The notes under the pieces are model-generated. The model was not told the DNA's origin, did no database searches, and saw only the letters and a list, made by a program, of their open reading frames with translations. The position numbers and the translations under genes are program-made. 64,000 nt of DNA, from positions 9,606-73,605 of the forward strand of contig JBBQXY010000002.1 in assembly GCA_038209195.1 (NCBI GenBank), in the 5' to 3' direction. This DNA is from Ktedonobacterales bacterium (GTDB lineage Bacteria > Chloroflexota > Ktedonobacteria > Ktedonobacterales > Ktedonobacteraceae). This document shows, in pieces, positions 6,661 through 26,942 of the stretch. Positions within the stretch are counted from its first letter, which is position 1; each line of letters starts with the position of its first letter.

Positions 6661-7953
6661 TTACACGTATTTCATTTCAATATAGCGACCACGCATGGCA
6701 TTGACGTGGGCTTTCACGTTTTGGCCGTGAATGGCGTCGTGGATCAACTGGGCCAGCTCGCCCATTGCCGCTTCGTCCATGCCGAAGCGCGTCATTTCGG
6801 GAACGCCAATACGTAAGCCGGAGGGGTTGCGCGGGTCACTGTCGCCCGGCACCATATTGTAGTTGACGATGATATCATTGGCCTCTAAGCGTTTAGCCAC
6901 CTCGACCCCACCACCGGCCTGTGCGACATTGACGGCGATCATGTGGCTCTGTGTATAGCCAAAATCGCGTGCCTCTACAGGAGTGCCTAGCATGTCGAGG
7001 CTGCGACCAAGTGCCTGCGCGTTGCGCACTATTTGCGCCGTGTACGCCTGTCCATACTGCTTCATCTCGCGAGTCGCTACAACGAGGGCTGGCAACGTAT
7101 TCAAGTGATGGTTGCTCGACGAGCCAGGGAAGACACCGCGATCCGCGGCAGGCCAGTATTTCTTCTCGCCCTCGGCATCCAAGTTGCCCAGGATAACGCC
7201 GCGCTGTGGGCCAGGGAAGGTCTTGTGCGTACTGCCCGTCATCCAGGTTGCCCCTTCTTGTAAAGGTGATTGAAATTGACCACCGGCGACTAACCCTAAC
7301 ACATGTGCTCCATCGTAGAGCAAGGGAATATCCTTTGTTTTGCAGAAGGCAGCTACTTCCGCGACAGGCTCAGGAAAGAGGAACAGGCTTTTCCCCATCA
7401 CAACCAGTTGCGGCGACACCTTGTCGATGAGTTCAATCGTTTTCTGGGCATCAACATGGTAGTGATCGACGGTCAGAGGTAAATAATGGAGGTGAACCGA
7501 GTTTTCTCCGCCCAGCTTTAAGGATTGGCCACGACTCTGGATGCGGCGACCAAATACTCCTACTGGCCCATGGCTGATATGCCCACCGGCGTCAGTAGAA
7601 TTCGCCACAATGGTATCGCCTCCGCGCAAGAGCCCTAAAGCGATGGCAGTGTTGGCAGCATTTCCACTAATGGGGCGTACATCGGCTTGCCGGGCATGAA
7701 AGAGCTCTATGATTTCGTCATGGGCCATGCGCTCAATCTCGTCGATGTAACGCGTCCCCTGGTAGTAGCGATTGACGTGATCGCCTTCATTGGGATGCCC
7801 CTCGGCATAACGGCCCATAAAATCCGAGTTTTGTACACGGCGTACCGCCGCACTAGGCGTATTTTCACTGGCAATCAGATTAATGGTCTGCGTCTGCCGC
7901 CAGGTATTCTGTTGTGCTATGATATCTTCAATATCGCGAATATCTACAGTCAT
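6661..7953 (-). CDS. glyA: serine hydroxymethyltransferase, archaeal-type sequence
   Basis: Diagnostic segments include [20 protein letters not shown]...[53 protein letters not shown] (PLP Lys) and [17 protein letters not shown]. I chose the start at ATG 7953 (MTVDIRD). The ORF track extends to 8028. Confidence 0.9.
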   Translation of the reverse strand: [430 protein letters not shown]

Positions 7954-8048
7954 GGTACTGCTCTCTTTCACATGCGGTGGTAATGAACTTTTCTGTATCT
8001 CAGTATAGCAGCAGAGAGCGGTCATCACAAGAGAGAATCGAGAGTATG

Positions 8049-8077
8049 TTGAACAAATTGCCCATTGCTGCTATACT
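8049..8077 (+). promoter_or_regulatory. sigma-70-like promoter candidate upstream of EF-G paralogue
   Basis: TTGAAC (8049-8054), a 17-nt spacer, then TATACT (8072-8077). Confidence 0.4.
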
Positions 8078-8241
8078 ACCTCTTACCGAACTGGATCAGC
8101 GTATTGTACAATCTTTTTTCCTGGACGAACCAGCTATTGGTACGGGAGCATAGGTGGACTACGGCAGTTACCACAGTGCATACTGTAATTTCGACAGGTA
8201 GACCACCTCTTGCATAGAAACTCAGGAGGATAACAGGTTCT

Positions 8242-10299
8242 ATGAAGGTTTATAAGGCGGAACAAATCCGCAACGTAGCATTGATTTCCCACGTTGGTGC
8301 CGGAAAAACGTCGTTTGTAGATGCTGCACTCTTTGATAGTGGTGCGGTAACCCGTCAGGGCAAGGTAGATGAAGGAAGCTCCATCTCCGACTACGATCCT
8401 GATGAATTAAAACGACGGATGTCACTCAATACCACCGTGGTACCAGTCGAATGGAAAAACCACAAAATTAACCTCATCGATACTCCCGGCTATGCGGACT
8501 TCGTGGGGGAAGTGAAGGCAGGCCTGCGTGTAGCTGACGCCGCGCTGATCGTTGTGACGGCTGAAAAAGGCGTTGAGGTAGGAACTGAACTCACATGGCA
8601 GTTCGCGGACGAGCGCAACTTGCCGCGCATAGTGCTTGTCAATAAGCTGGATCGTGAAAATACCTCATTTGATACCGCTCTCAAATCATTGCGCGATCAG
8701 TTTGGCGTCAAAGTCGTCCCTCTCCAGGTACCTATCGGTGATCAAGCCAATTTCAAAGGCGTGGTAGACCTCGTCTCACAGAAGGGCTATACCTTTGAAG
8801 GTGGCAACAAAGTACAGGAAGTCGCTATTCCTGCTGACCTCAAGGAAAGCATCAGCGCGTACCGCGAACAGTTAATCGAGTCCGCCGTTGAGAGCGACGA
8901 CGCGATTATGGAAAAGTTCCTGGAAGGCGAAGAGTTGAGCGACGAGGAAATTCTCTCCGTTGTGAAAAAAGGCACCAGCAGCGGTCAGTTGATTCCCGTT
9001 TTGTGCGGCTCCACCGCTAAAAATGTCGGTGTGCAGACCCTCCTCGATGCTATCATTGAGTATTTGCCATCTGCTGCCGAGGCCCAGGCAGATGAAGCAA
9101 AAGCTCCTGGCAATGCGCTCTCACAGTTTGTCTTTAAGACAGCCGCCGCCCAGGTTGGCACCATCTCCTACTTCCGTGTCTATAGTGGCACGCTCAAACC
9201 AGACATGCATGTTTACAATGTGCGTACTAAAGCTGATGAGCGCATCGGGCAATTGATCATCCCACGCGGGAAATTGCAAGAAACCGCGACCGAGATTCCT
9301 GCCGGTGATATTGGTGCCGTCGCCAAACTTTCTAATACGCATACTGGCGATACGCTGGTCAGCAACAAGGACGTGACAGTGGATCTGGCACCAATTAACT
9401 TCCCACAACCGTGTTACACTGTCGCGGTCGTTCCCAAGAGCCAGGCCGACCTGGATAAGATGGGGAATGCCCTGGGACGCGTGGTGGAAGAAGATCGTAC
9501 CTTGCGTGTTTCCCGCGACCCCGAAACAGCGGAAGTGCTACTTTCTGGCATGGGTGAGTCGCACCTACAGATTACGATTGAAGGCATCAAACGCAAGTAT
9601 GCCGTTGATCTAGACGCCCACGAACAACGCATCTCTTATCGTGAGACCATTCGCAAAAAGGCGCGCGCCAACGGGCGCCACAAGCGGCAAAGCGGTGGTC
9701 ACGGCCAGTTCGGAGATGTCTGGTTAGAGATCGAACCGCTCCCCATGGGCAGTGAAGAAACCTTCATCTTTGAAGACAAAATCGTGGGCGGCGTGGTACC
9801 AGGCCAATACATCCCCGGTGTCGAAAAAGGCGTGCGCGAGTCCCTGCGACGCGGTTTTCTATCGGGCAATCCCATGCTCTACGTAAAGGTCGCCCTAGTA
9901 GATGGCAAATACCATCCGGTAGATTCATCGGCCCAGGCATTTGAAGTCGCCGCTTCGCTCGGTATGCAAGAGGCTGTCCCTCTGGCCAACCCAACGCTAC
10001 TGGAGCCTGTGATGACCGCAACCATTACGGTGCCAGAGCACTATATGGGCGATGTGATGAGCGATATCAATACGAAACGCGGACGCGTGTTGGGCATGAA
10101 TTCGCTGGACAGTGGGATGCAACAGATTGTTGCGCATGTCCCACAAGCCGAGATGCTCCATTATGCTACCGATATGCGCTCCATCACGCAAGGCCGTGGC
10201 TCCTTCACATTGGTATTCTATCAATACGAAGAAGTTCCCGCCAATGTGCAGCAAGATATCATCGCCCAGCACAAGAAGGCTTTAGAAGCGAAGAAATAA
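8242..10299 (+). CDS. elongation factor G family GTPase (paralogue-type N-terminus)
   Basis: GTPase motifs are G1 SHVGAGKTS, G3 DTPGYADF and G4 NKLD. The 685-aa length fits a five-domain EF-G. A strong RBS (CAGGAGGA) lies upstream. Confidence 0.9.
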   Translation: MKVYKAEQIRNVALISHVGAGKTSFVDAALFDSGAVTRQGKVDEGSSISDYDPDELKRRMSLNTTVVPVEWKNHKINLIDTPGYADFVGEVKAGLRVADAALIVVTAEKGVEVGTELTWQFADERNLPRIVLVNKLDRENTSFDTALKSLRDQFGVKVVPLQVPIGDQANFKGVVDLVSQKGYTFEGGNKVQEVAIPADLKESISAYREQLIESAVESDDAIMEKFLEGEELSDEEILSVVKKGTSSGQLIPVLCGSTAKNVGVQTLLDAIIEYLPSAAEAQADEAKAPGNALSQFVFKTAAAQVGTISYFRVYSGTLKPDMHVYNVRTKADERIGQLIIPRGKLQETATEIPAGDIGAVAKLSNTHTGDTLVSNKDVTVDLAPINFPQPCYTVAVVPKSQADLDKMGNALGRVVEEDRTLRVSRDPETAEVLLSGMGESHLQITIEGIKRKYAVDLDAHEQRISYRETIRKKARANGRHKRQSGGHGQFGDVWLEIEPLPMGSEETFIFEDKIVGGVVPGQYIPGVEKGVRESLRRGFLSGNPMLYVKVALVDGKYHPVDSSAQAFEVAASLGMQEAVPLANPTLLEPVMTATITVPEHYMGDVMSDINTKRGRVLGMNSLDSGMQQIVAHVPQAEMLHYATDMRSITQGRGSFTLVFYQYEEVPANVQQDIIAQHKKALEAKK

Positions 10300-10360
10300 T
10301 ACGTTTAGCAACAGGGTGTGTGACCATACGGTCACACACCCTGTTGCTAAACGTATTATT
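10295..10360. terminator. perfect 31-bp stem hairpin between convergent genes; left arm overlaps EF-G stop codon
   Basis: The arms are aataatacgtttagcaacagggtgtgtgacc and ggtcacacaccctgttgctaaacgtattatt, separated by the loop atac. A T-rich run follows. Confidence 0.7.
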
Positions 10361-10368
10361 TTGTAGCA

Positions 10369-11067
10369 CTATCTTGAAATTAGGCGAGCGATCAGGAAAG
10401 CGGCGGCGGCGGCAAGTCCGCCGATAAGTGCTGTTTGCAGGGCACTTCTGAACGGTTTGGCACCGGTAAAGCGTCCTTTGACGTAGCCGAAGACCAGTAA
10501 TGCAAGCAAGGTGGCAATGACTGAAACCAGCAGTGCCGTTGACGCTGGTGTGAATAAGAAGTAGGGACTGAGGGGAATTAAGCCGCCCACGATGTAAGAT
10601 GCGGCAATGGTAAGTGCGCTTGTTAATGCTCGCTTGGGGTCTGGCTTTTCGAGGCCAAGTTCGAAGCGCATCATAAAATCGATCCAGGCATCAGGACGCT
10701 TGCTCAAGGCCTCCACAATAGGTGTACTTTCTACCTTGGTGAGACCGTAGGAGACAAAAACGTCCATCACTTCCGCTTTTTCGGCTTCTGTTTTTTCTTT
10801 GATCTCTTGTTGTTCGCGCACACGCTCACTGTCGTAATGTTCAGCGTCGCTACGTGCCGCCAGGTATCCACCAAGCCCCATCGCGATGGAACCCGCCGCA
10901 ATCTCAGCAAGTCCCGCGGTGATGATAATCGTGGTTGAACTCACGGCACCTGAGAGTCCAGCGGCTAAGGCAAACGGAACTGTCAGCCCATCAGACATAC
11001 CAATAACTATGTCGCGAACAGTCTCTCCAGCGGTAAAGTGTCGCTCAATATGTGGTGTTTGTGGCAC
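10369..11067 (-). CDS. VIT1/CCC1-family iron/manganese transporter
   Basis: The layout is TM1 (GMSDGLTVPFALAAGLSG), a central Glu-rich cytoplasmic helix region (EQQEIKEKTEAEKAE) and C-terminal TM helices. Confidence 0.8.
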   Translation of the reverse strand: MPQTPHIERHFTAGETVRDIVIGMSDGLTVPFALAAGLSGAVSSTTIIITAGLAEIAAGSIAMGLGGYLAARSDAEHYDSERVREQQEIKEKTEAEKAEVMDVFVSYGLTKVESTPIVEALSKRPDAWIDFMMRFELGLEKPDPKRALTSALTIAASYIVGGLIPLSPYFLFTPASTALLVSVIATLLALLVFGYVKGRFTGAKPFRSALQTALIGGLAAAAAFLIARLISR

Positions 11068-11094
11068 AGCTTCTTTCCTCGTTTCGATTTTTCT

Positions 11095-11400
11095 TTATAT
11101 TTTTCGCTTGTGATTTCCTTTTCCTCTACCCTGTTTGGCCCCTTGTGGTTGTTTATCTCGTGTCAGAAAGGCGTTGGCATCCTCCTCGTGTCCGTTTGTT
11201 AGTAACCATGCACGCGCTTGTTCGTGGAGGTCGCGCAGTGTAGGGCTGCCCGCGATCATCATCCACATGGCGAACTTTGCATCCTCCGGTTGACCAGGAG
11301 ACCATTGTTTCTCGGCTATAAGAAAAGCAGATACCTGCTCCACATCCTGTGTGCGCAGGACGGCATCTAATCGTTGTCGAAAACTAGCATAATCAGCCAT
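11095..11400 (-). CDS. hypothetical protein
   Basis: This is a 101-aa ORF on the same strand as its neighbours. I recognised no motif. Confidence 0.5.
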   Translation of the reverse strand: MADYASFRQRLDAVLRTQDVEQVSAFLIAEKQWSPGQPEDAKFAMWMMIAGSPTLRDLHEQARAWLLTNGHEEDANAFLTRDKQPQGAKQGRGKGNHKRKI

Positions 11401-11433
11401 AGGTCACTTCCTCATTCTTCATACATCAAAATA

Positions 11434-12030
11434 CTATGGGTGTATTTTCTGGTTATTGGCTAACATTTCGATAAACTTGGTTATGCGAGCAGAGCGGGTG
11501 GCAGGCTTTTTAGCGGTTTGGATTCTAAAAATGAAAGCGTAGCGATTTGCGCTATCTAACGTGCCAAAAAAATCTTTAGCCTGCTGGTTTTTGTCCAGCT
11601 CACTTTGAAAGTCAGGTGGAATTGTTATCTTGCTCTGGGATTCGTAGGCTACGTCCCAGCGACCATCGGCTTGAGCTAGCTCCACTTGTCGCATCCCCGC
11701 TGGCTGCATCCTGCCTTCGGCAATAAGTGCCATGGCTTTATTACAATTCACCTTTGACCACATACTCTTTGAACGGCGTGGCGTGAATTTTTGTAACCAG
11801 TACGTGTCATCAAAAGGAGCTTTTTGACCATCGATCCAACCATAGCACAAGGCAATGTCTAATGCCTCTGCATAATTGATAGAAGGTATACCAGTACCTT
11901 TTTTGGCGAATTTGAGCCAAACGCCCTCGATGCCGGTATGGTGTTCTAGGAGCCACCTTTCCCAGTCTTGTGGGGTCTCAAATGTCTCCATTGGGAGACG
12001 ATTAGTATCTTTCATACCAGCATTATACAA
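11434..12030 (-). CDS. YdeI/OmpD-associated family protein (DUF1801-like)
   Basis: The sequence pattern (WLKFAKKGTGIPSINYAEALDIALCYGWIDG...RSARITKFIEML) is typical of the YdeI family. The start is uncertain, with alternative ATGs at 12015 and 11991. Confidence 0.7.
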   Translation of the reverse strand: MYNAGMKDTNRLPMETFETPQDWERWLLEHHTGIEGVWLKFAKKGTGIPSINYAEALDIALCYGWIDGQKAPFDDTYWLQKFTPRRSKSMWSKVNCNKAMALIAEGRMQPAGMRQVELAQADGRWDVAYESQSKITIPPDFQSELDKNQQAKDFFGTLDSANRYAFIFRIQTAKKPATRSARITKFIEMLANNQKIHP

Positions 12031-12271
12031 AATTTGGGTAACTCGCTGCTAAGCAGTGCCAGTACTCTGTTCCACTTCATTTTACGAGCAGGGATGTAAG
12101 GGACTGCCGTCCCTTGACTGGGTTCTAGGGCTGCGCCCTAGTTCTCCCTCCCCTGCTGCCTTCGGCGGCAAGTCACATAAAGAGGGACAAAGCAGTGCTA
12201 GAGTATATTGAATAAGAATTTGACTCTCCCGTAAAATGTAAGTATAAGTACTAGTCTTGTGTGCGAAGAAC

Positions 12272-12300
12272 TTGACTCTTGTCCATAAAATACGTACAAT
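12272..12300 (+). promoter_or_regulatory. sigma-70-like promoter candidate
   Basis: TTGACT (12272-12277), a 17-nt spacer, then TACAAT (12295-12300). A second, similar copy (TTGACT-17-TATAAG) lies about 50 nt upstream at 12220-12248. Confidence 0.45.
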
Positions 12301-12369
12301 GCCTGAAACGCAGGACAGGAAAATCGTCACTGTTTGGGGATAACACCACATCTAAGCATGAGGTAACAA

Positions 12370-13083
12370 TTGCAGCGCGAACGAATTTATTCAGCACCGT
12401 CGCTGATAGACGTAGTTAAGCAACTGCTTATTTATCGCTCCACTGGCGTGCTTACTATTTGGCGTGCAGCGGTTTCACGTCAGAACGAGGTCAAAATTAC
12501 GGTAGAACAAGGACGCCCCATTCGCGCTTTCTGGGGCGCGTCCTACAGAGAAGAGATGAACGATTCTATCCTCCATTGGTTTCACAACTGGGGCGAAATC
12601 CATTTCTCGTTTCAAGCTACCGAAACTCGCCTACAGTTACCTCCTCCTTCCCAACATGTGCTACAAACGGAGCACCCGTTATCGCGTACTTCCCCCAACA
12701 ATGCCGCGCCACAGGATTTCTCACGGCAAGCTAGCGTTACTCTTCCACTGTCTAGATTACCTGCGCTACCTTCTGCATCATCCCAACCACCGCAGCAAAG
12801 TTCATTCCTCAACCATGCCAATCATGGCTCGTCCGATCCGGACGCGCTTACGAACGCCGAGACCGTGGTGGCTAGCTTAACTACGCAAGGGCGAGAATTT
12901 TCCGCAGCCAACCTCCCACGCCACGAGCGTACCATCTTTCTACTGATCAATGGACGACGAACAGCAGTTGACCTGGCGCAACTGACGAAACGCACGCTTG
13001 ACGATGTTCACGTAACATTGTATCGCTTACAGAGCATGCAACTCGTCACCATCAATACCTTCCCTACAGTTCAGCACAGGTAA
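12370..13083 (+). CDS. hypothetical protein (possible DUF4388-like N-terminus, Pro/Ser-rich linker, winged-helix-like C-terminus)
   Basis: It has a TTG start with GAGGT 6 nt upstream. The C-terminal segment (IFLLINGRRTAVDLAQLTKRTLDDVHVTLYRLQSMQLV) looks like a wHTH. The domain calls are tentative. Confidence 0.55.
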   Translation: MQRERIYSAPSLIDVVKQLLIYRSTGVLTIWRAAVSRQNEVKITVEQGRPIRAFWGASYREEMNDSILHWFHNWGEIHFSFQATETRLQLPPPSQHVLQTEHPLSRTSPNNAAPQDFSRQASVTLPLSRLPALPSASSQPPQQSSFLNHANHGSSDPDALTNAETVVASLTTQGREFSAANLPRHERTIFLLINGRRTAVDLAQLTKRTLDDVHVTLYRLQSMQLVTINTFPTVQHR

Positions 13084-14234: not shown

Positions 14235-15848
14235 TCAGCACTCTACTGCCATTATTTCGCCACCACGTTCAGCCGAACGTTTCGCGGCCTCCATCACCAC
14301 GATGTTGCGCCGCGCTTCCTCAGGCGGTACCGCTAACGGCTCTCCAGAGTGCAGGTGATTGGCCAGGTTGCGATGAAACGGGTTGATCGGTGGGGAAGGC
14401 AACATGACATGTTGCTCGTGGATAGCACCACCGAGGTCACGTGTAAAGATGCTCAACGCTGGCAGCGTTTCAGAGGGTGCCAGACGCTGCTCGATCAAGT
14501 CCCCTGACCATCGTCGTGTCTTCACCGCTTCCTGCCGCCAATGACCAACAATCGCCCCTTGCTCCCCCAAGATATACCACTTGGGCTTCAGTGCGGCAGC
14601 GATATCCGAATGCAAAAATTCCGCCTCTTGCCCACCTGCAAAGCGGATATAGACACCGGATTGGTCAGCATTGGTAACATCGTGCCAGACGCGCTTATGC
14701 TCGACGCCACGCACACTGACCACTCGTTCAGGAATTAATTGCAGGATCCAATCCAGGTAGTGGGAACCCCAGTCATAAAATACGCCACCAGAAATAGGTT
14801 CGTGTGAATGCCAGTAATCGCAGGGGTGAGCATAGCCACCAATAAAGGTTTCCATGTGAAAAACATCCCCAATCGTCCCGCGCCGCACTATCTCCTGAAT
14901 AGCCAGAAAATCAGCATCCCAACGACGGCACTGGTAGACCGTTAAGGCCCGTTGTCGCTCACGCGCAAGCTGTATCATGCCATCAGCTTCTGCCGTCGTC
15001 AAGCAAAAGGGTTTCTCCGACACTACATGTTTGCCGGCCTCTAACATTTGCATGGTGATAGCCGCGTGGGTATTGGGAGGCGTTGAGACAATCACCAGAT
15101 CAATACTAGGGTCTTCGGCCACCTGCTCAAGATTCAAACAGGTTTGTACTCCTGGGAATGCTTGTTGTGCTATCGCTAAACGCTCCTCGTTGCGATCACA
15201 AACGAGCGCGTATTCTAATCCTGGCACTTGCGAAATGGCAGTCCCATGTTCAAAACCGATGGCTCCATAGCCGATCATAGCAACACGGGCTGGGCGTTCC
15301 TCTGTCTCAACACCAGAGGCATAGCGAATAGCACGCGCCACCATTTGTTCATACACTGGATGAGCAGCAGAAGCAGGTGTACCGCCGAGCGTCGTACAGA
15401 AAACGCGCCCAGCGCCGTAATTGAAGGCATAAGCGAGGGTGTAAGAGGTATAGTGCCAGGTGGTACGCCACAGAACAGTGGCAGCAGCGGGAACTCGCGC
15501 CAACATATAGACGCTCTCAAGCACAGCAAAAGAGGTATCGACCCTGCGCGTGATATAGTGGTCGGGATGAGCAAGGCGCACAATTATCTCACTGTGCATC
15601 GAACATGTCCCCCGAATATCACCCAACACCTGCCCTAGGAGTTCATATTCGTGGTAGGTCTCAGCCGCGTTACCAACGCACACCAAGCCACCACCGCGCT
15701 CAACAAAGCTGACGAGTGCCTCTTCCTGTTGCAAAGTCAGCGGTCCCGAATTGCCATCAAGCACAAACACCTGACCTGGGCGCAACTGGTCGAGCGTATC
15801 AAGCATGGTAAGTGATTGGACAACTTCGACCTCGTGTAAAGTAATCAT
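14235..15848 (-). CDS. fusion protein: ThuA-like (class-I amidotransferase-like) N-domain + Gfo/Idh/MocA NAD(P)-dependent oxidoreductase
   Basis: The Rossmann segment is RVAMIGYGAIGFEHG...VIVSTPPNTHAAITMQMLEAGKHVVSEKP. I placed the start at ATG 15848 (MITLHEV) with GGAG upstream, 20 nt after the cysS stop. The ORF-track extension to 16088 overlaps cysS. Confidence 0.8.
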   Translation of the reverse strand: MITLHEVEVVQSLTMLDTLDQLRPGQVFVLDGNSGPLTLQQEEALVSFVERGGGLVCVGNAAETYHEYELLGQVLGDIRGTCSMHSEIIVRLAHPDHYITRRVDTSFAVLESVYMLARVPAAATVLWRTTWHYTSYTLAYAFNYGAGRVFCTTLGGTPASAAHPVYEQMVARAIRYASGVETEERPARVAMIGYGAIGFEHGTAISQVPGLEYALVCDRNEERLAIAQQAFPGVQTCLNLEQVAEDPSIDLVIVSTPPNTHAAITMQMLEAGKHVVSEKPFCLTTAEADGMIQLARERQRALTVYQCRRWDADFLAIQEIVRRGTIGDVFHMETFIGGYAHPCDYWHSHEPISGGVFYDWGSHYLDWILQLIPERVVSVRGVEHKRVWHDVTNADQSGVYIRFAGGQEAEFLHSDIAAALKPKWYILGEQGAIVGHWRQEAVKTRRWSGDLIEQRLAPSETLPALSIFTRDLGGAIHEQHVMLPSPPINPFHRNLANHLHSGEPLAVPPEEARRNIVVMEAAKRSAERGGEIMAVEC

Positions 15849-15867
15849 GAATGATTTTTTCTCCTGT

Positions 15868-18267
15868 TTATTGCGGCTCATGGTAATGGGGATGTTCATG
15901 CGAATGATCTGACCAGTGATGGTGCATATGCATATGTGGCGTGCCAGCAGGTGGCATCTCCTGCGGCGCATGGGTATGCGTTCCTTCCACGTGCCGCGGA
16001 TGGTCGTGACCATACCAGAGATTTTCGGGCTTGTAGTTTTGCACCAGCAAGCTCTCGCCATGATGCCAGCGATCACGGAAGATGTCATAGTTCTTCTTGC
16101 TCTTGGTGGCCTGCTCGTCCTCGCTCAGGCTATACCATTCTTTATGGGGGTGCTTCTCAAGCTGTTCAGCCAATTGCGGCAGCGCCAGTGCGCGATAGCC
16201 CGCGGTCTTGAAAAAGAAACTGAAGTAGATATCCATCAAACGGTAGAAGCGGAACTTCTCATCAATCGCCCCCACCTCTGGCAATAGTTCGCGCCGAAAA
16301 GCCATCAGGTACCCCTCGATAGCATCAACATCAGGGCCGGTAGACTCGCTGTAATCGCGTAGATCAGTGGTCACTAAGCCATACGGCCCGACGACACCGA
16401 CAGTGCGCTTTGCAAGTGTCTTCGCCAGTAGCTCCCAGATAGCACCTTTGACCTCAATCGAGGTATCCATCAGGACGATAAAACGTCCACGACTAGCACG
16501 CATCGTCGCGTTCCGTCCCGCCGCGAAACCCATGTTGTGATCGGCAAAAAGCACCTGGAGACCAACGCGCTGGCCGTCCACGCCGATCAACTCTCCACGG
16601 CGTGCCAATTGCTGCAAATAGGCCAGTGTTTCATCGGTCGAGCCGTTATCAATAAGCACCACTTCGAGTGCGTATTGACCAGCATGGCGACAAATGCTCT
16701 GTACACAACGTTCCAGGTCTTCTTTGCTATTATGGGCCAGCAGGTTGACAGAAAATTCATATAGGTCGGGGGCAGTCGTCTGCTCAGGCACATCAGTAGA
16801 ACTGGAGATGACGGTGAACTCCTCTTCCGGCGGTCGTGGTAAGATCAGCGAGCCGCGTTGCGTATCGCGCAGCATATAACCGGCAGCACTGAGTTCCGCG
16901 CGAATGCTGTCAGCCGGATGGTAATTCCGGTGCTGGCGCAGACCGTCTCGTTCGCGCACCTGCGTAGCAATAGGAGTTGGCACCGTCTCCAGAAATACCT
17001 GTGGGTTGGTTTTCTGCTGTGGTAGATCGCTTTGCAAGTAATTGCGCAGATCAAAGCCAAGGATACGGTCGAAATCCAGTAGCAAACGAACTTTCGTCGT
17101 GGCATCCTGGTCGGTCGAGTGCAGCATATTCCATACAATCGCCATGGCGCGGGGAATATTCAGATCATGCTCAACCTGCTCCAGAAACGCTTCCTGCCAC
17201 TGGTGGCTTTCAAAGGGCAGAGGTGAGAGTGCAAGCTCTTTATCCGCCTGGGTAAACAGTTGGTAGGCGCGTTCGCGCAGTCGTTCCAGGGAGGTCTGAG
17301 CGGACTGCAATGCGCGGAAGGTGAAGTTCAGACGGCTGCGATAGAGGGCCGTTGTATAAAAATAGCGCAGTGCAAAGGGATCAAAGCCACGGGCTTCGAT
17401 CTCCGAGCAAGTATAGGCATTACCAGTAGATTTCGCCATCTTCTGCCCATCAGCCAAGAGGTGCTGGGCATGAATCCAGTAGTTCACGAACTGATGGCCC
17501 GTAAAGCCTTCGCTCTGCGCAATCTCGTCTTCATGATGGGGAAAAATATTATCGACACCGCCTGTGTGCATGTCAAACTGCTCGCCAAGGTACTTGATCG
17601 ACATCGCACTACACTCGATGTGCCAACCCGGAAATCCACGTCCCCATGGACTATCCCATGCCATCTCGCGCCCTGGTTCGGCGGACTTCCACAGCGGGAA
17701 GTCCTCTGGATTATGGCGATCGGTATCTATCCCCTCGCGTACTCCTGCCAGCATGTTTTCAAGCTGATTGCCAGAGAGCTTCCCATAGCCAGGAAATCGT
17801 TTGATATCAAAATAGATAAAGCCATTGACCTCGTAGGCAATGCCCTTTGCCAGCAAGCCTTGAATAATCGTAATCATCTCTGGAATATGTTGTGTGGCGC
17901 GTGGAAAGATGTTCGCGGGCAAAATGTTGAGCTTGGCTTCATCCTCGTGGAATGCTTCTGTATAAAATTGCGCGATCTCTAACGAGGTTTTCCCCTCTTT
18001 GCGCGCCTGCGCCAGCATTTTATCCTCTCCGCGATCCACCACCTCCTGGCGCATATGCCCTACGTCGGTAATATTCTTGACATGCAGTACCTCGAAGCCG
18101 CGATACTCAAAGGTACGACGTATCCAGTCCGCCATCGTAAACGTGCGCAAATTGCCGATATGGATATAACGATACACGGTTGGGCCACACGAATACATGC
18201 TGATTTTGCCTGCTGTAATAGGAATAATCTCTTCGATACACCTGGTCAACGTATTGTAAATTTTCAT
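15868..18267 (-). CDS. cysS: cysteinyl-tRNA synthetase fused to a family-2 glycosyltransferase domain and a His-rich C-terminal tail
   Basis: Residues 1-478 form a complete CysRS: CGPTVY, HIGN, WHIECS, FPHHEDEIAQSE, KMAKS and the C-terminal ADSIRAELSAAGYMLRDT. Residues ~505-700 are GT2-like: VVLIDNGSTDET, HNMGFAAGRN, LMDTS. The last 66 residues contain 17 His. Confidence 0.9.
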   Translation of the reverse strand: MKIYNTLTRCIEEIIPITAGKISMYSCGPTVYRYIHIGNLRTFTMADWIRRTFEYRGFEVLHVKNITDVGHMRQEVVDRGEDKMLAQARKEGKTSLEIAQFYTEAFHEDEAKLNILPANIFPRATQHIPEMITIIQGLLAKGIAYEVNGFIYFDIKRFPGYGKLSGNQLENMLAGVREGIDTDRHNPEDFPLWKSAEPGREMAWDSPWGRGFPGWHIECSAMSIKYLGEQFDMHTGGVDNIFPHHEDEIAQSEGFTGHQFVNYWIHAQHLLADGQKMAKSTGNAYTCSEIEARGFDPFALRYFYTTALYRSRLNFTFRALQSAQTSLERLRERAYQLFTQADKELALSPLPFESHQWQEAFLEQVEHDLNIPRAMAIVWNMLHSTDQDATTKVRLLLDFDRILGFDLRNYLQSDLPQQKTNPQVFLETVPTPIATQVRERDGLRQHRNYHPADSIRAELSAAGYMLRDTQRGSLILPRPPEEEFTVISSSTDVPEQTTAPDLYEFSVNLLAHNSKEDLERCVQSICRHAGQYALEVVLIDNGSTDETLAYLQQLARRGELIGVDGQRVGLQVLFADHNMGFAAGRNATMRASRGRFIVLMDTSIEVKGAIWELLAKTLAKRTVGVVGPYGLVTTDLRDYSESTGPDVDAIEGYLMAFRRELLPEVGAIDEKFRFYRLMDIYFSFFFKTAGYRALALPQLAEQLEKHPHKEWYSLSEDEQATKSKKNYDIFRDRWHHGESLLVQNYKPENLWYGHDHPRHVEGTHTHAPQEMPPAGTPHMHMHHHWSDHSHEHPHYHEPQ

Positions 18268-18437
18268 GGTTTCGTCTATGGCCCTTCCTGGTACTCGTGC
18301 AAAGAAGTCATCTAAAATCAGCTATAGGAACATGCATTCAATTATAGTATGGTACGTGCGAATATCAGCCTTTGTCAAGAAGATACGTTATGCAACAACG
18401 CTTGGTTCATCGAAAATATTCCCTTCTATGACGCTTG

Positions 18438-18523: not shown

Positions 18524-19009
18524 TTATTGAGCCAGTTCGCGCACGATCTGTTGCACACGCCCACCATTGGCACGTCCCTTGGTCTCCTTGATGGCGAGCG
18601 GCATGACGCGTTTGAAATCTTTGCCATTTTGCGCAACCAGATCTGCGACGATAGCGCGTAGCTCGTCGTCGCTGAGATGCGAACCTTGTAGGTAGGTCTG
18701 CAAGATGGCCATTTCGCGCTGCTCTTTCTCTGCTAGTTCTGGTCGTCCACCTTGCTTGTAGAAGGGGATAGCCTGTTCTCGCTTCTTAATCTCTTGCTCC
18801 ATGACATGCAAGCAATCTGCCGCAGTCAAGGGTTGTCCAAAATCACGATTTTTGCGATCAGTACGCGCCACTTCCAGGTTGTGTATAGCACCAAGGGCCA
18901 TGCGCAACGTATCCAGACGCACTTGGTCATGTGCGCGCTGGGCATCCTGGATGTCCTTACGTAGTTGTTGCTCTAAAGGGAATTCCTGTCGTGACTCTGC
19001 CATAGTCAA
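18524..19009 (-). CDS. GatB/YqeY domain protein
   Basis: It is 161 aa. The pattern LRMALGAIHNLEVA...ELAEKEQREMAILQTYL...GKDFKRVMPLAIKETKGRANG is typical of the YqeY family. Confidence 0.8.
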   Translation of the reverse strand: MTMAESRQEFPLEQQLRKDIQDAQRAHDQVRLDTLRMALGAIHNLEVARTDRKNRDFGQPLTAADCLHVMEQEIKKREQAIPFYKQGGRPELAEKEQREMAILQTYLQGSHLSDDELRAIVADLVAQNGKDFKRVMPLAIKETKGRANGGRVQQIVRELAQ

Positions 19010-26096: not shown

Positions 26097-26204
26097 TTCC
26101 TATGCTCGTTGACTCTTGACAACTCACCTTTGCTGTCCTACACTCCAAAGAGAACGCGTTAGTATTTGCCTTGGCAGGTGAGAGGAAAAAGGAAAGCAAG
26201 CTCC

Positions 26205-26942
26205 ATGTCACAACGTATTACAGAAGAAGCCGACAACACCGAGCATTCGCACACGACCGAAGCCGATTTTGCCCAATTGCCACAACTCCCACCAGGTGTA
26301 TTTATCCCCGCGCCCAGTGCTACGCCACGGCGAAAAACGCGCTGGCCCGATGCCATCGACGTCATTTTCGAGAAAGACCCGGCCTGCCGTAATATCTTCG
26401 AGGCACTCCTCTATCAGAGCCTGTGGGCCATCTTCTACCACCGCATCGCCCACGCACTCTATACAGCGCACATTCCCTTCTTGCCACGCTTCATCTCCCA
26501 ATTCGCCCGTCTGATGACCAGCGGCATCGAAATTCATCCGGGAGCACAGATTGGCAAACGGTTCTTTATCGACCACGGTGCCGGTATCGTCATCGGCGAA
26601 ACCGCCGTCATTGGCGATAATGTCATGCTGTATCACCAAGTTACGCTGGGGGCAACAGGATGGTGGCGGCGCGGCCCCAGTCGCCTTCAGAAACGCCATC
26701 CCACCATTGAGAGCGATGTAACCATCGGCGTGGGAGCGGCAATCCTTGGCCCTATCACCATCGGTCGAGGTAGCAAGATTGGTGCAATGGCGCTGGTACT
26801 GGAATCGGTACCCCCCAATTCTGTGGTCGCCTCAAAACCTGCCGAATTGCTGGTCAAGAGCGGCGAGATGCTCGAAAAGCACGAGGAACTCACGCAGGGC
26901 TGGAATGGCAAAGACCCATGGGAAATGGATTATCAGATTTAG
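26205..26942 (+). CDS. cysE: serine O-acetyltransferase
   Basis: The hexapeptide-repeat core is IEIHPGAQIGKRFFIDHGAGIVIGETAVIGDNVMLYHQVTLG. I placed the start at ATG 26205 after a purine-rich RBS. The ORF track starts at 26166. Confidence 0.85.
   Translation: MSQRITEEADNTEHSHTTEADFAQLPQLPPGVFIPAPSATPRRKTRWPDAIDVIFEKDPACRNIFEALLYQSLWAIFYHRIAHALYTAHIPFLPRFISQFARLMTSGIEIHPGAQIGKRFFIDHGAGIVIGETAVIGDNVMLYHQVTLGATGWWRRGPSRLQKRHPTIESDVTIGVGAAILGPITIGRGSKIGAMALVLESVPPNSVVASKPAELLVKSGEMLEKHEELTQGWNGKDPWEMDYQI

Follow-up and report, generated by a model that had tools for sequence, protein, structure and literature searches.

A cysteinyl-tRNA synthetase fused to a family 2 glycosyltransferase in Chloroflexota, with a possible role at the tRNA-Cys anticodon

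Aminoacyl-tRNA synthetases are among the best-studied enzymes, and domains appended to them usually mark an added function. In the tRNA-bound complex of Escherichia coli cysteinyl-tRNA synthetase (CysRS; 1U0B), the anticodon is gripped by a C-terminal minidomain, and the active site lies at the opposite end of the L-shaped tRNA, with the adenylate tens of angstroms away. Synthetase parts have also been reused for tRNA modification: GluQRS (YadB), a paralogue of GluRS, glutamylates queuosine in the anticodon of tRNA-Asp. MshC, a paralogue of CysRS, is the cysteine:GlcN-Ins ligase of mycothiol synthesis. The E. coli CysRS reads the GCA anticodon through R427, W432, D436 and R439, with R427 bonded to G34 (PMC13449415, PDB 1U0B), and the vertebrate enzymes QTGAL and QTMAN glycosylate anticodon position 34 (PMC12518689). 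Here we describe a gene on the minus strand of a 64,000-nucleotide (nt) stretch of DNA from a Ktedonobacterales bacterium (phylum Chloroflexota; assembly GCA_038209195.1, contig JBBQXY010000002.1, positions 9,606 to 73,605; the whole stretch is hereafter called the window), whose product joins a CysRS to a family 2 glycosyltransferase (GT2) and a His-rich tail (Table 1).

The CysRS-GT2 fusion is widespread in the phylum Chloroflexota, and databases annotate it simply as 'cysteine--tRNA ligase'. Full-text literature searches found no published description of a CysRS-glycosyltransferase architecture, and we know of no aminoacyl-tRNA synthetase fused to a glycosyltransferase. What is new is the phylum-wide extent of the fusion, together with the consistent tie of the glycosyltransferase to the domain that reads the tRNA-Cys anticodon, the CysS_C minidomain. 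The reading we prefer, to which we give a probability of roughly 0.4, is that of a housekeeping CysRS whose glycosyltransferase would be docked on, or gated by, tRNA-Cys via CysS_C.

Architecture of the fusion protein

The fusion gene is one open reading frame (ORF) with an ATG start and a TAA stop (stop codon 15868-15870). The initial annotation had described it as a complete CysRS followed by a GT2 domain and a His tail, and every motif quoted there was found: CGPTVY (amino acids (aa) 27-32), HIGN (36-39), WHIECS (215-220), HHEDE (244-248), KMAKS (276-280) and the anticodon-domain end ADSIRAELSAAGYMLRDT (aa 452-469) in the CysRS half, and VVLIDNGSTDET (aa 536-547, nt 16627-16662), HNMGFAAGRN (aa 577-586) and LMDTS (aa 599-603) in the glycosyltransferase half. 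Pfam places tRNA-synt_1e at aa 16-324 (E 1.4e-97) and Glycos_transf_2 (PF00535) at aa 509-645 (E 4.4e-17, 62.9 bits against a cut-off of 23.3), and GC content is even across the junction of the two halves. The full-length AlphaFold model (predicted local distance difference test, pLDDT, 86.1; predicted template modelling score, pTM, 0.80) suggests a fixed arrangement of the fused domains. Two details had to be corrected. The linker of ~25 aa annotated between the halves has that length, but it is conserved and modelled as ordered (pLDDT about 88), and hence is not floppy; the GT2-like domain stands, but it does not end at nt ~16168, as the domain and its C-terminal helices reach aa ~745 (nt ~16033).

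Table 1. Features of the fusion gene and of its surroundings. Positions are those of the window unless a locus is named.
Feature	Position	Strand	Basis or remark
CysRS-GT2-His-tail fusion gene, 799 aa	15868..18267	minus	ORF, Pfam, NCBIfam, motif check, AlphaFold model
CysRS Rossmann, CP and helical anticodon-binding domains, aa 1-430	16978..18267	minus	Pfam, NCBIfam, E. coli CysRS match
CysS_C minidomain, aa 431-478, the anticodon-reading end of CysRS	16834..16977	minus	alignment, conservation, model
Ordered conserved connector, aa 479-503, family motif 'SSS.DVP..L.EPD'	16759..16833	minus	conservation, model
GT2/GT-A domain and C-terminal helices, aa 504-745	16033..16758	minus	PF00535, conservation, fold
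His-rich tail, aa 746-799, 15 His	15871..16032	minus	counts, 16-homologue conservation, models
ThuA and Gfo/Idh/MocA sugar-oxidoreductase fusion (ThuA-GFO)	14235..15848	minus	Pfam; starts 19 nt past the fusion stop, with its own GGAG
YqeY-like (GatB/YqeY family) gene, upstream neighbour	18524..19009	minus	PF09424
Two overlapping sigma-70-like promoter matches	18341..18378	minus	256-nt gap between yqeY and the fusion gene; site count not above shuffled controls
Glutaredoxin-like gene	L088 3711-3938	plus	gene calls; preceded by a MATE/MurJ-type transporter gene
Glutaredoxin-like gene in further loci	L010, L011, L014, L015, L017, L020, L021, L023-L025, L027, L029, L031, L036, L043, L047, L049, L052, L058, L062

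At the level of sequence and model, aa 1-478 hold everything that a tRNA-charging CysRS needs. The NCBIfam cysS equivalog TIGR00435 matches aa 1-473 with 442.9 bits (cut-off 340), E. coli CysRS (1li5/1u0b) matches the same residues (E 1e-88, through E. coli residue 456), and superposition of the full-length model on the tRNA-complexed E. coli chain 1u0b_B, over all of its 461 residues, gives a template modelling (TM) score of 0.83. Across 106 fused proteins sharing 46-94% identity with the window protein, H36, G38, N39, K276, M277, K279 and S280 are invariant, as are C27, C219, H244 and E248, which we take as the predicted Cys/Cys/His/Glu zinc ligands; the E. coli zinc site is presumably C28, C209, H234 and E238. 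The fusion is the sole cysS copy within the window. The CysRS match, the E. coli match and the superposition all support the fallback offered in the initial annotation, namely a canonical CysRS carrying an appended domain. Membership of MshC was rejected: the model TIGR03447 scores 212.6 bits against a cut-off of 485.1 and the full anticodon-binding region is present, and MshC structures match only aa 12-332 (E 3e-50).

The module of aa 430-799, modelled with a 104-sequence alignment, adopts a GT-A fold (pLDDT 89.2, pTM 0.84). A structure search gave 378 PDB matches at E <= 0.001, the best 50 of which were all GT-A glycosyltransferases; the best were 6p61 (an uncharacterised Leptospira GT2), ppGalNAc-Ts, WrtF, K4CP and PcManGT (Foldseek E 1e-9 to 3e-11), and 6p61 also matches at the sequence level (E 1e-14). 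No PDB match is close enough for function to be transferred to the module. Conserved residues are D540-N-G-S, D576, N586, D601-T-S-I-E605, R658-R659, D669, FRFYR-x-x-D679, H706-x-H708 and S723-x-x-N726. Across 48 fused modules, only about 38% identical to the window protein in this domain, position 540, where the Asp ending strand 2 is expected to bind the nucleotide, is Asp in 44 and Glu in 4, N541 and N586 are found in 48/48, D576 in 47/48, D601 in 42/48 and E605 in 46/48, and D669, D679, H706 and H708 in 48/48 each. D601, S603, D669, D679 and H708 are also invariant in the 106 fused proteins. D679, after 'FRFYR', is kept in 78/78 modules (the fused ones and the free-standing ones described below), aligns with an Asp of 6p61 and is the candidate catalytic base. 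The metal site probably consists of D601/E605 plus H706/H708, histidines that we take to recall the C-terminal His metal ligand of ppGalNAc-Ts. Judging from conservation and fold, the domain likely retains the residues expected for nucleotide-sugar and metal binding and looks active. A GT2 domain stripped of its catalytic residues, which the initial annotation had raised as an objection to its own idea, is not what the fused modules show, because D540, D576, D601, D679 and H706/H708 are conserved in them.

Histidine makes up 27.8% of aa 746-799 against 3-4% elsewhere in the protein, and the last 66 residues contain exactly the 17 His first reported. Most of the tail histidines are invariant among 16 homologues, and the model folds the final ~17 residues into an HxHxH beta-hairpin (pLDDT about 50-77). 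The tail was added in the Ktedonobacteria/Roseiflexaceae-type branch, and shorter His-rich C-termini recur across the family. An origin by DNA slippage or as a tandem repeat was rejected, no DNA repeat having been found. As modelled, the tail probably binds a divalent metal, candidates being Zn, which would serve the CysRS thiolate site, and Mn, which would serve the glycosyltransferase.

Distribution of the family and its tie to the anticodon-reading minidomain

The 120 best database matches to the window protein are all ~800-aa CysRS and GT2 fusions, 75-94% identical to it; named members are labelled 'cysteine--tRNA ligase' and come from metagenome-assembled genomes (MAGs) of Ktedonobacteraceae or Ktedonosporobacter, on contigs of up to 3.4 Mb. 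Among 16 of the best homologues, the glycosyltransferase domain is strongly conserved. A search of cluster representatives with aa 479-799 alone returned two further groups of relatives: more distant CysRS-GT2 fusions of 709-745 aa without the His tail, and Met-initiated proteins of ~300-345 aa made up of a CysS_C segment and, behind it, GT2 (the free-standing form). A third search, seeded with a Dehalococcoidia fusion, gave at least 120 clusters, mostly fusions of ~700-750 aa from Dehalococcoidia and Anaerolineae MAGs, and named clusters again carried the label cysteine--tRNA ligase. A scan at one genome per species found 80 loci, nearly all labelled Chloroflexota (Anaerolineae, Dehalococcoidia, Thermoflexales, 'Chloroflexia', Limnocylindria and Ktedonobacteria) and a few labelled Actinomycetota. 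With two added loci (L001 and L002) this makes 82 classified loci, in 51 of which CysRS and GT2 share a single frame (694-807 aa; Anaerolineae, Dehalococcoidia, Thermoflexales and Ktedonobacteria) and in 31 of which the free-standing form lies with no CysRS within 6 kb, counts that are no unbiased census because the scan motif SKRNFY[RH]F was taken from free-standing proteins and did not sample the Ktedonobacteria-type fused genes (SKKNYDIF).

In a midpoint-rooted neighbour-joining tree of the modules, fused and free-standing forms fall into separate pure clades, three each (one of the free-standing clades is a single sequence), and the window module groups with other fused forms. This topology fits an old fusion accompanied by free-standing paralogues that are likewise old, and, judged by the sequences, the fusion is old and under purifying selection. 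The free-standing form is present in the cultured Ktedonobacter racemifer DSM 44963, Ktedonobacter sp. SOSP1-85 and Ktedonospora formicarum. For the fused form, the search gave MAG or read-derived members only; cultured Ktedonobacteria are confirmed for the free-standing paralogue only. The K. racemifer gene (locus L038, 5971-6951 (+), NZ_ADVG01000001.1; found also in L032, L074 and L035) encodes a protein of about 326 aa that is 34% identical to the window glycosyltransferase module, ends in an acidic E/D tail instead of a His tail and has S-S-H in place of D-T-S. At one 1.36-Mb metagenomic contig (L085), a free-standing gene (8001-8963 (+)) converges on an ordinary 519-aa cysS (8996-10555 (-)) that has its own CysS_C; the two are 33 nt apart, and this is the sole free-standing locus seen with a nearby cysS. 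Three free-standing loci (L053, L061 and L072) come from MAGs labelled Steroidobacteraceae or Planctomycetaceae, and their proteins cluster with the Chloroflexota type; the labels may reflect binning errors or horizontal transfer.

In none of the proteins found does the glycosyltransferase domain stand alone. It follows CysS_C, the last ~50 residues of CysRS, in the fusions, and the free-standing proteins begin with CysS_C, which scores above the Pfam cut-off in P0129, P0135, P0125 and the K. racemifer protein; no fused locus or protein was found with a partner other than CysRS. Residues 1-48 of one free-standing protein can be aligned gaplessly with E. coli CysRS 414-458 (1li5). By alignment, the window residues equivalent to E. 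coli R427, W432, D436 and R439 are R444, Y449, D453 and R456, and all 48 fused modules have Arg, an aromatic residue, Asp and Arg at these positions. The same four positions read R (30), W/F/Y (30), D (30) and R (25) or K (5) in 30 genomic free-standing proteins, and 70 further free-standing proteins from the database agree at each position (70/70). Within the free-standing proteins, entropy is 1.42 bits in CysS_C versus 1.45 bits in the glycosyltransferase core; the minidomain is as conserved as the core and is therefore not a decaying leftover. It is modelled as two helices and a beta-hairpin (pLDDT 85-95), and the connector behind it is conserved in family alignments. We infer that CysS_C plus GT2 is the conserved functional unit; the appended domain, which the initial annotation had considered possibly unrelated to CysRS, is found together with its anticodon-reading minidomain.

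A few divergent relatives point the same way, less cleanly, as far as their sequences go. In P0241, P0266 and P0267 (about 570-606 aa; 29% identity to window aa 268-735) the catalytic Rossmann fold is reduced to a short remnant, and the helical anticodon-binding region and GT2 are retained; P0241 has a Lys/Glu-rich insert in place of the CysS_C region. P0144 (593 aa) begins with an unidentified domain of ~290 aa, followed by a weak CysS_C match (22.3 bits, cut-off 23) and GT2.

Proposed function and its alternatives

In the mechanism that we favour, CysS_C would dock the glycosyltransferase on tRNA-Cys through the anticodon, and the enzyme would glycosylate a position within or close to the anticodon arm or loop; alternatively, tRNA-Cys binding would switch the glycosyltransferase on and off. 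In the fused enzyme, the glycosyltransferase could act on the same tRNA molecule that is being charged. A tRNA-docked enzyme is proposed because the free form retains the four GCA-reading residues, and a glycosyltransferase held rigidly behind the minidomain should sit near the anticodon arm rather than the cysteinyl-adenylate. Sugar transfer is probably linked to tRNA-Cys and not to the synthesis of a cysteine-sugar thiol. More specifically, CysS_C plus GT2 might be a new bacterial tRNA glycosyltransferase. Its domain taken from CysRS would pick out tRNA-Cys through the GCA anticodon, and the sugar would be added within or close to the anticodon loop; in much of Chloroflexota it would be built into the synthetase, placing charging and modification (or a sugar-status signal) on one enzyme. 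We regard this extension as tentative and somewhat unlikely.

Several observations weigh against a tRNA-directed role. The glycosyltransferase module is acidic (median pI 5.1-5.8), and its bulk charge gives no support for RNA binding, a weak test because the CysRS part is acidic too. The DxD position is atypical, reading D601-T-S603-I-E605 with the second Asp absent. In free-standing paralogues, D540 is replaced by Ala in 16/30 and D576 is variable, and with D540/D576 lost in half of them, some members may be inactive or may use another donor. No tRNA genes were found in the window, and ARAGORN detected no tRNA-Cys near relatives of the fusion in the 21 related loci scanned, where only tRNA-Met (L083) and tRNA-Arg (L060) were present. 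A gene for a glutaredoxin-fold CxxC protein (67-75 aa, motif CPTC/NCPTC) lies 0-101 nt upstream on the same strand in 20/45 other fused loci. Sugar enzymes adjoin the Ktedonobacterial forms, and a PIG-L (MshB/BshB-type) deacetylase gene lies about 3 kb from the actinobacterial free forms. Both tRNA binding by the glycosyltransferase module and a sugar-bearing nucleoside in tRNA-Cys are, moreover, predictions.

The likeliest alternative is a canonical CysRS with a glycosyltransferase whose acceptor is other than tRNA (a small molecule, a lipid carrier or a protein), with the fusion serving only co-expression or a loose metabolic link and CysS_C retained in the free-standing proteins as a structural base for the glycosyltransferase domain. 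The glycosyltransferase fold does resemble ordinary transferases of sugars, peptides and polymers (6p61, ppGalNAc-Ts, WrtF, K4CP), the module is acidic, the model packs the connector and CysS_C against the glycosyltransferase domain, and sugar-related genes occur nearby (ThuA-GFO, and a ManC-like gene upstream of the K. racemifer free form). We nevertheless consider such an acceptor unlikely, as it leaves unexplained both why four anticodon-reading side chains are fixed in 100/100 free-standing proteins of ~35% overall identity and why every fusion found, whether locus or protein, has CysRS as its partner.

The initial annotation had proposed that cysteine activation is coupled to glycoside formation, through steps like those of MshC and MshA, to give a Cys glycoside or a low-molecular-weight thiol. 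In a variant that we add, the glycosyltransferase would S-glycosylate cysteine, as the GT2 enzymes SunS and ThuS do. The glutaredoxin-like gene fits such chemistry, as do the ThuA-GFO gene that follows in 4/5 Ktedonobacteria-type loci and, at the actinobacterial free forms, the PIG-L deacetylase with an ECF sigma factor/zf-HC2 pair within ~3 kb. These neighbours differ by lineage, however, and none is universal. MshA and BshA belong to GT4, not GT2. The coupling is disfavoured because the CysRS is canonical, with an MshC score below the cut-off and the full anticodon-binding apparatus kept, because the glycosyltransferase joins the synthetase at its anticodon end, a long way from the adenylate site, and because the module also occurs without any cysteine-activating domain. 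We judge the proposal improbable.

It is also decidedly improbable that the GT2 domain has ceased to be an enzyme and is instead an appended domain for tRNA binding, oligomerisation or regulation, next to a His tail that senses or stores a metal such as zinc for the CysRS active site. Appended non-catalytic domains are common in aminoacyl-tRNA synthetases, and the atypical D-T-S, the loss of nucleotide-binding residues in about half of the free-standing paralogues, the S-S-H of the K. racemifer protein and the recurrent short His-rich C-termini would all suit this explanation. Against it stand the GT-A acidic and His residues, which are invariant or nearly so over 48-106 fused sequences whose domains are only about 38% identical, as expected of a working active site. 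An assembly or frameshift artefact joining two genes, a concern of the initial annotation, has virtually no chance of being correct and was rejected, because the fusion is conserved as the same single ORF across hundreds of independent assemblies (contigs of 0.5-3.4 Mb) with even GC at the junction.

Should the glycosyltransferase act on tRNA-Cys, bacteria would have their first tRNA glycosyltransferase, and sugar-nucleotide status would be newly linked to the decoding of cysteine codons. A thiol or another small molecule as its substrate would instead imply unknown cysteine-sugar chemistry in Chloroflexota, a phylum in which, to our knowledge, low-molecular-weight thiols are poorly characterised. 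The docking hypothesis is testable: the free-standing form of ~300 aa exists in cultured K. racemifer DSM 44963, and the four named residues predict a binding phenotype.

Gene neighbourhood and comparison with known systems

Evidence on neighbouring genes comes from precomputed gene calls, as our own ORF calls were partly spoiled by spurious long ORFs in high-GC DNA. The neighbourhood of the fusion gene is housekeeping: the YqeY-like gene is conserved beside it in Ktedonobacteria-type loci, and on the downstream side there follow genes for a LON-N-domain protein, EF-G and SHMT, the same as in L001. A 237-aa ORF with a Q/S/P-rich middle and no Pfam match (12370-13083 (+)) lies between the genes for the OmdA-domain and LON-N-domain proteins. 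At L087 (1-3565 (-)), a 988-aa GT2 and PMT_2 protein and a GH113 glycoside hydrolase replace yqeY upstream. No Rfam match to a T-box or other regulatory RNA was found in the window.

The ThuA-GFO gene had been noted directly downstream on the same strand at a distance of twenty nt; the placement is right and the spacing is 19 nt. It is probably co-transcribed with the CysRS-GT2 gene here. A mechanical ORF list gives it as 14235-16088 (-) with 617 aa, overlapping the His-tail codons in another frame. Its real start is most likely the ATG at 15848 behind GGAG, for a protein of 537 aa; the orthologues in L001, L086 and L087 have 534-543 aa. The gene is a neighbour in the window, L001, L086 and L087, not in L002, and it is absent from L088, the single locus of the Dehalococcoidia type for which gene calls exist. 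It accompanies the fusion at the level of the lineage only, and it might process a sugar without being a core part of the system.

The glutaredoxin-like proteins of the fused loci were found at 37-90% identity and reach no specific NCBIfam cut-off, the best match being the 'Uxx-star' glutaredoxin-like family; the gene was found upstream in 0/28 free-standing loci and is not in the window. About 550 nt separate the K. racemifer free form from an upstream gene for a ManC-like NTP_transferase (GDP-mannose pyrophosphorylase), and a MurJ gene lies further upstream. In L083 and L084 (about 7560-13000; L084 comes from a MAG labelled Actinomycetota), a gene for a 139-aa cNMP-binding protein ends 20-22 nt before the free-standing gene, which is convergent with ftsH, and an ECF sigma factor, a zf-HC2 anti-sigma factor and the PIG-L deacetylase are encoded within about 3 kb. 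No thiol- or sugar-flavoured neighbour is universal; each is confined to one lineage. A cysE had also been reported from the window, and a candidate does exist, a hexapeptide-repeat transferase gene that may be cysE (26166-26942 (+)), but it is not in the fusion operon, because ~8 kb and two ABC transporter genes separate it from the fusion and it is encoded on the opposite strand. The mycothiol genes mshA (GT4), mshB and mshD were not found adjacent to the fusion in the window or in the related loci examined.

Compared with E. coli CysS (1LI5, 1U0B), the fusion has all of the HIGH/KMSKS motifs, the zinc residues, the helical anticodon domain and the C-terminal minidomain, and it differs by about 320 extra C-terminal residues (connector, GT2 and His-rich tail). 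With MshC it has the class I catalytic core in common; MshC is a protein of about 410 aa without the anticodon-reading end of CysRS, whereas the fusion retains the complete anticodon-binding region. The glycosyltransferase half is like the GT-A enzymes 6P61, ppGalNAc-Ts, WrtF, K4CP and PcManGT in its fold and in a conserved His after the fold core (H706/H708), but identity is only 13-24% and D-T-S stands where DxD or DxH is expected. Two features set the family of fused and free-standing proteins apart among GT-A enzymes, the CysS_C domain at the N-terminus and the 'SK(R/K)N(F/Y)' helix on the C-terminal side.

Closest in concept to the proposed mechanism are QTGAL and QTMAN, which make galactosyl- and mannosyl-queuosine and thus transfer a sugar at the anticodon loop of specific tRNAs; QTGAL (B3GNTL1) is presumably also a GT2-family enzyme. 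The likeness is one of concept only. These enzymes are eukaryotic, are not fused to a synthetase and act on the queuosine of tRNA-Tyr and tRNA-Asp, whereas tRNA-Cys (anticodon GCA) carries no queuosine, and no QTGAL or QTMAN structure was among the best 50 PDB matches of the module. GluQRS/YadB, in turn, reuses the catalytic domain of a synthetase and has lost the anticodon domain; here, it is the anticodon minidomain that is reused, joined to an unrelated enzyme fold.

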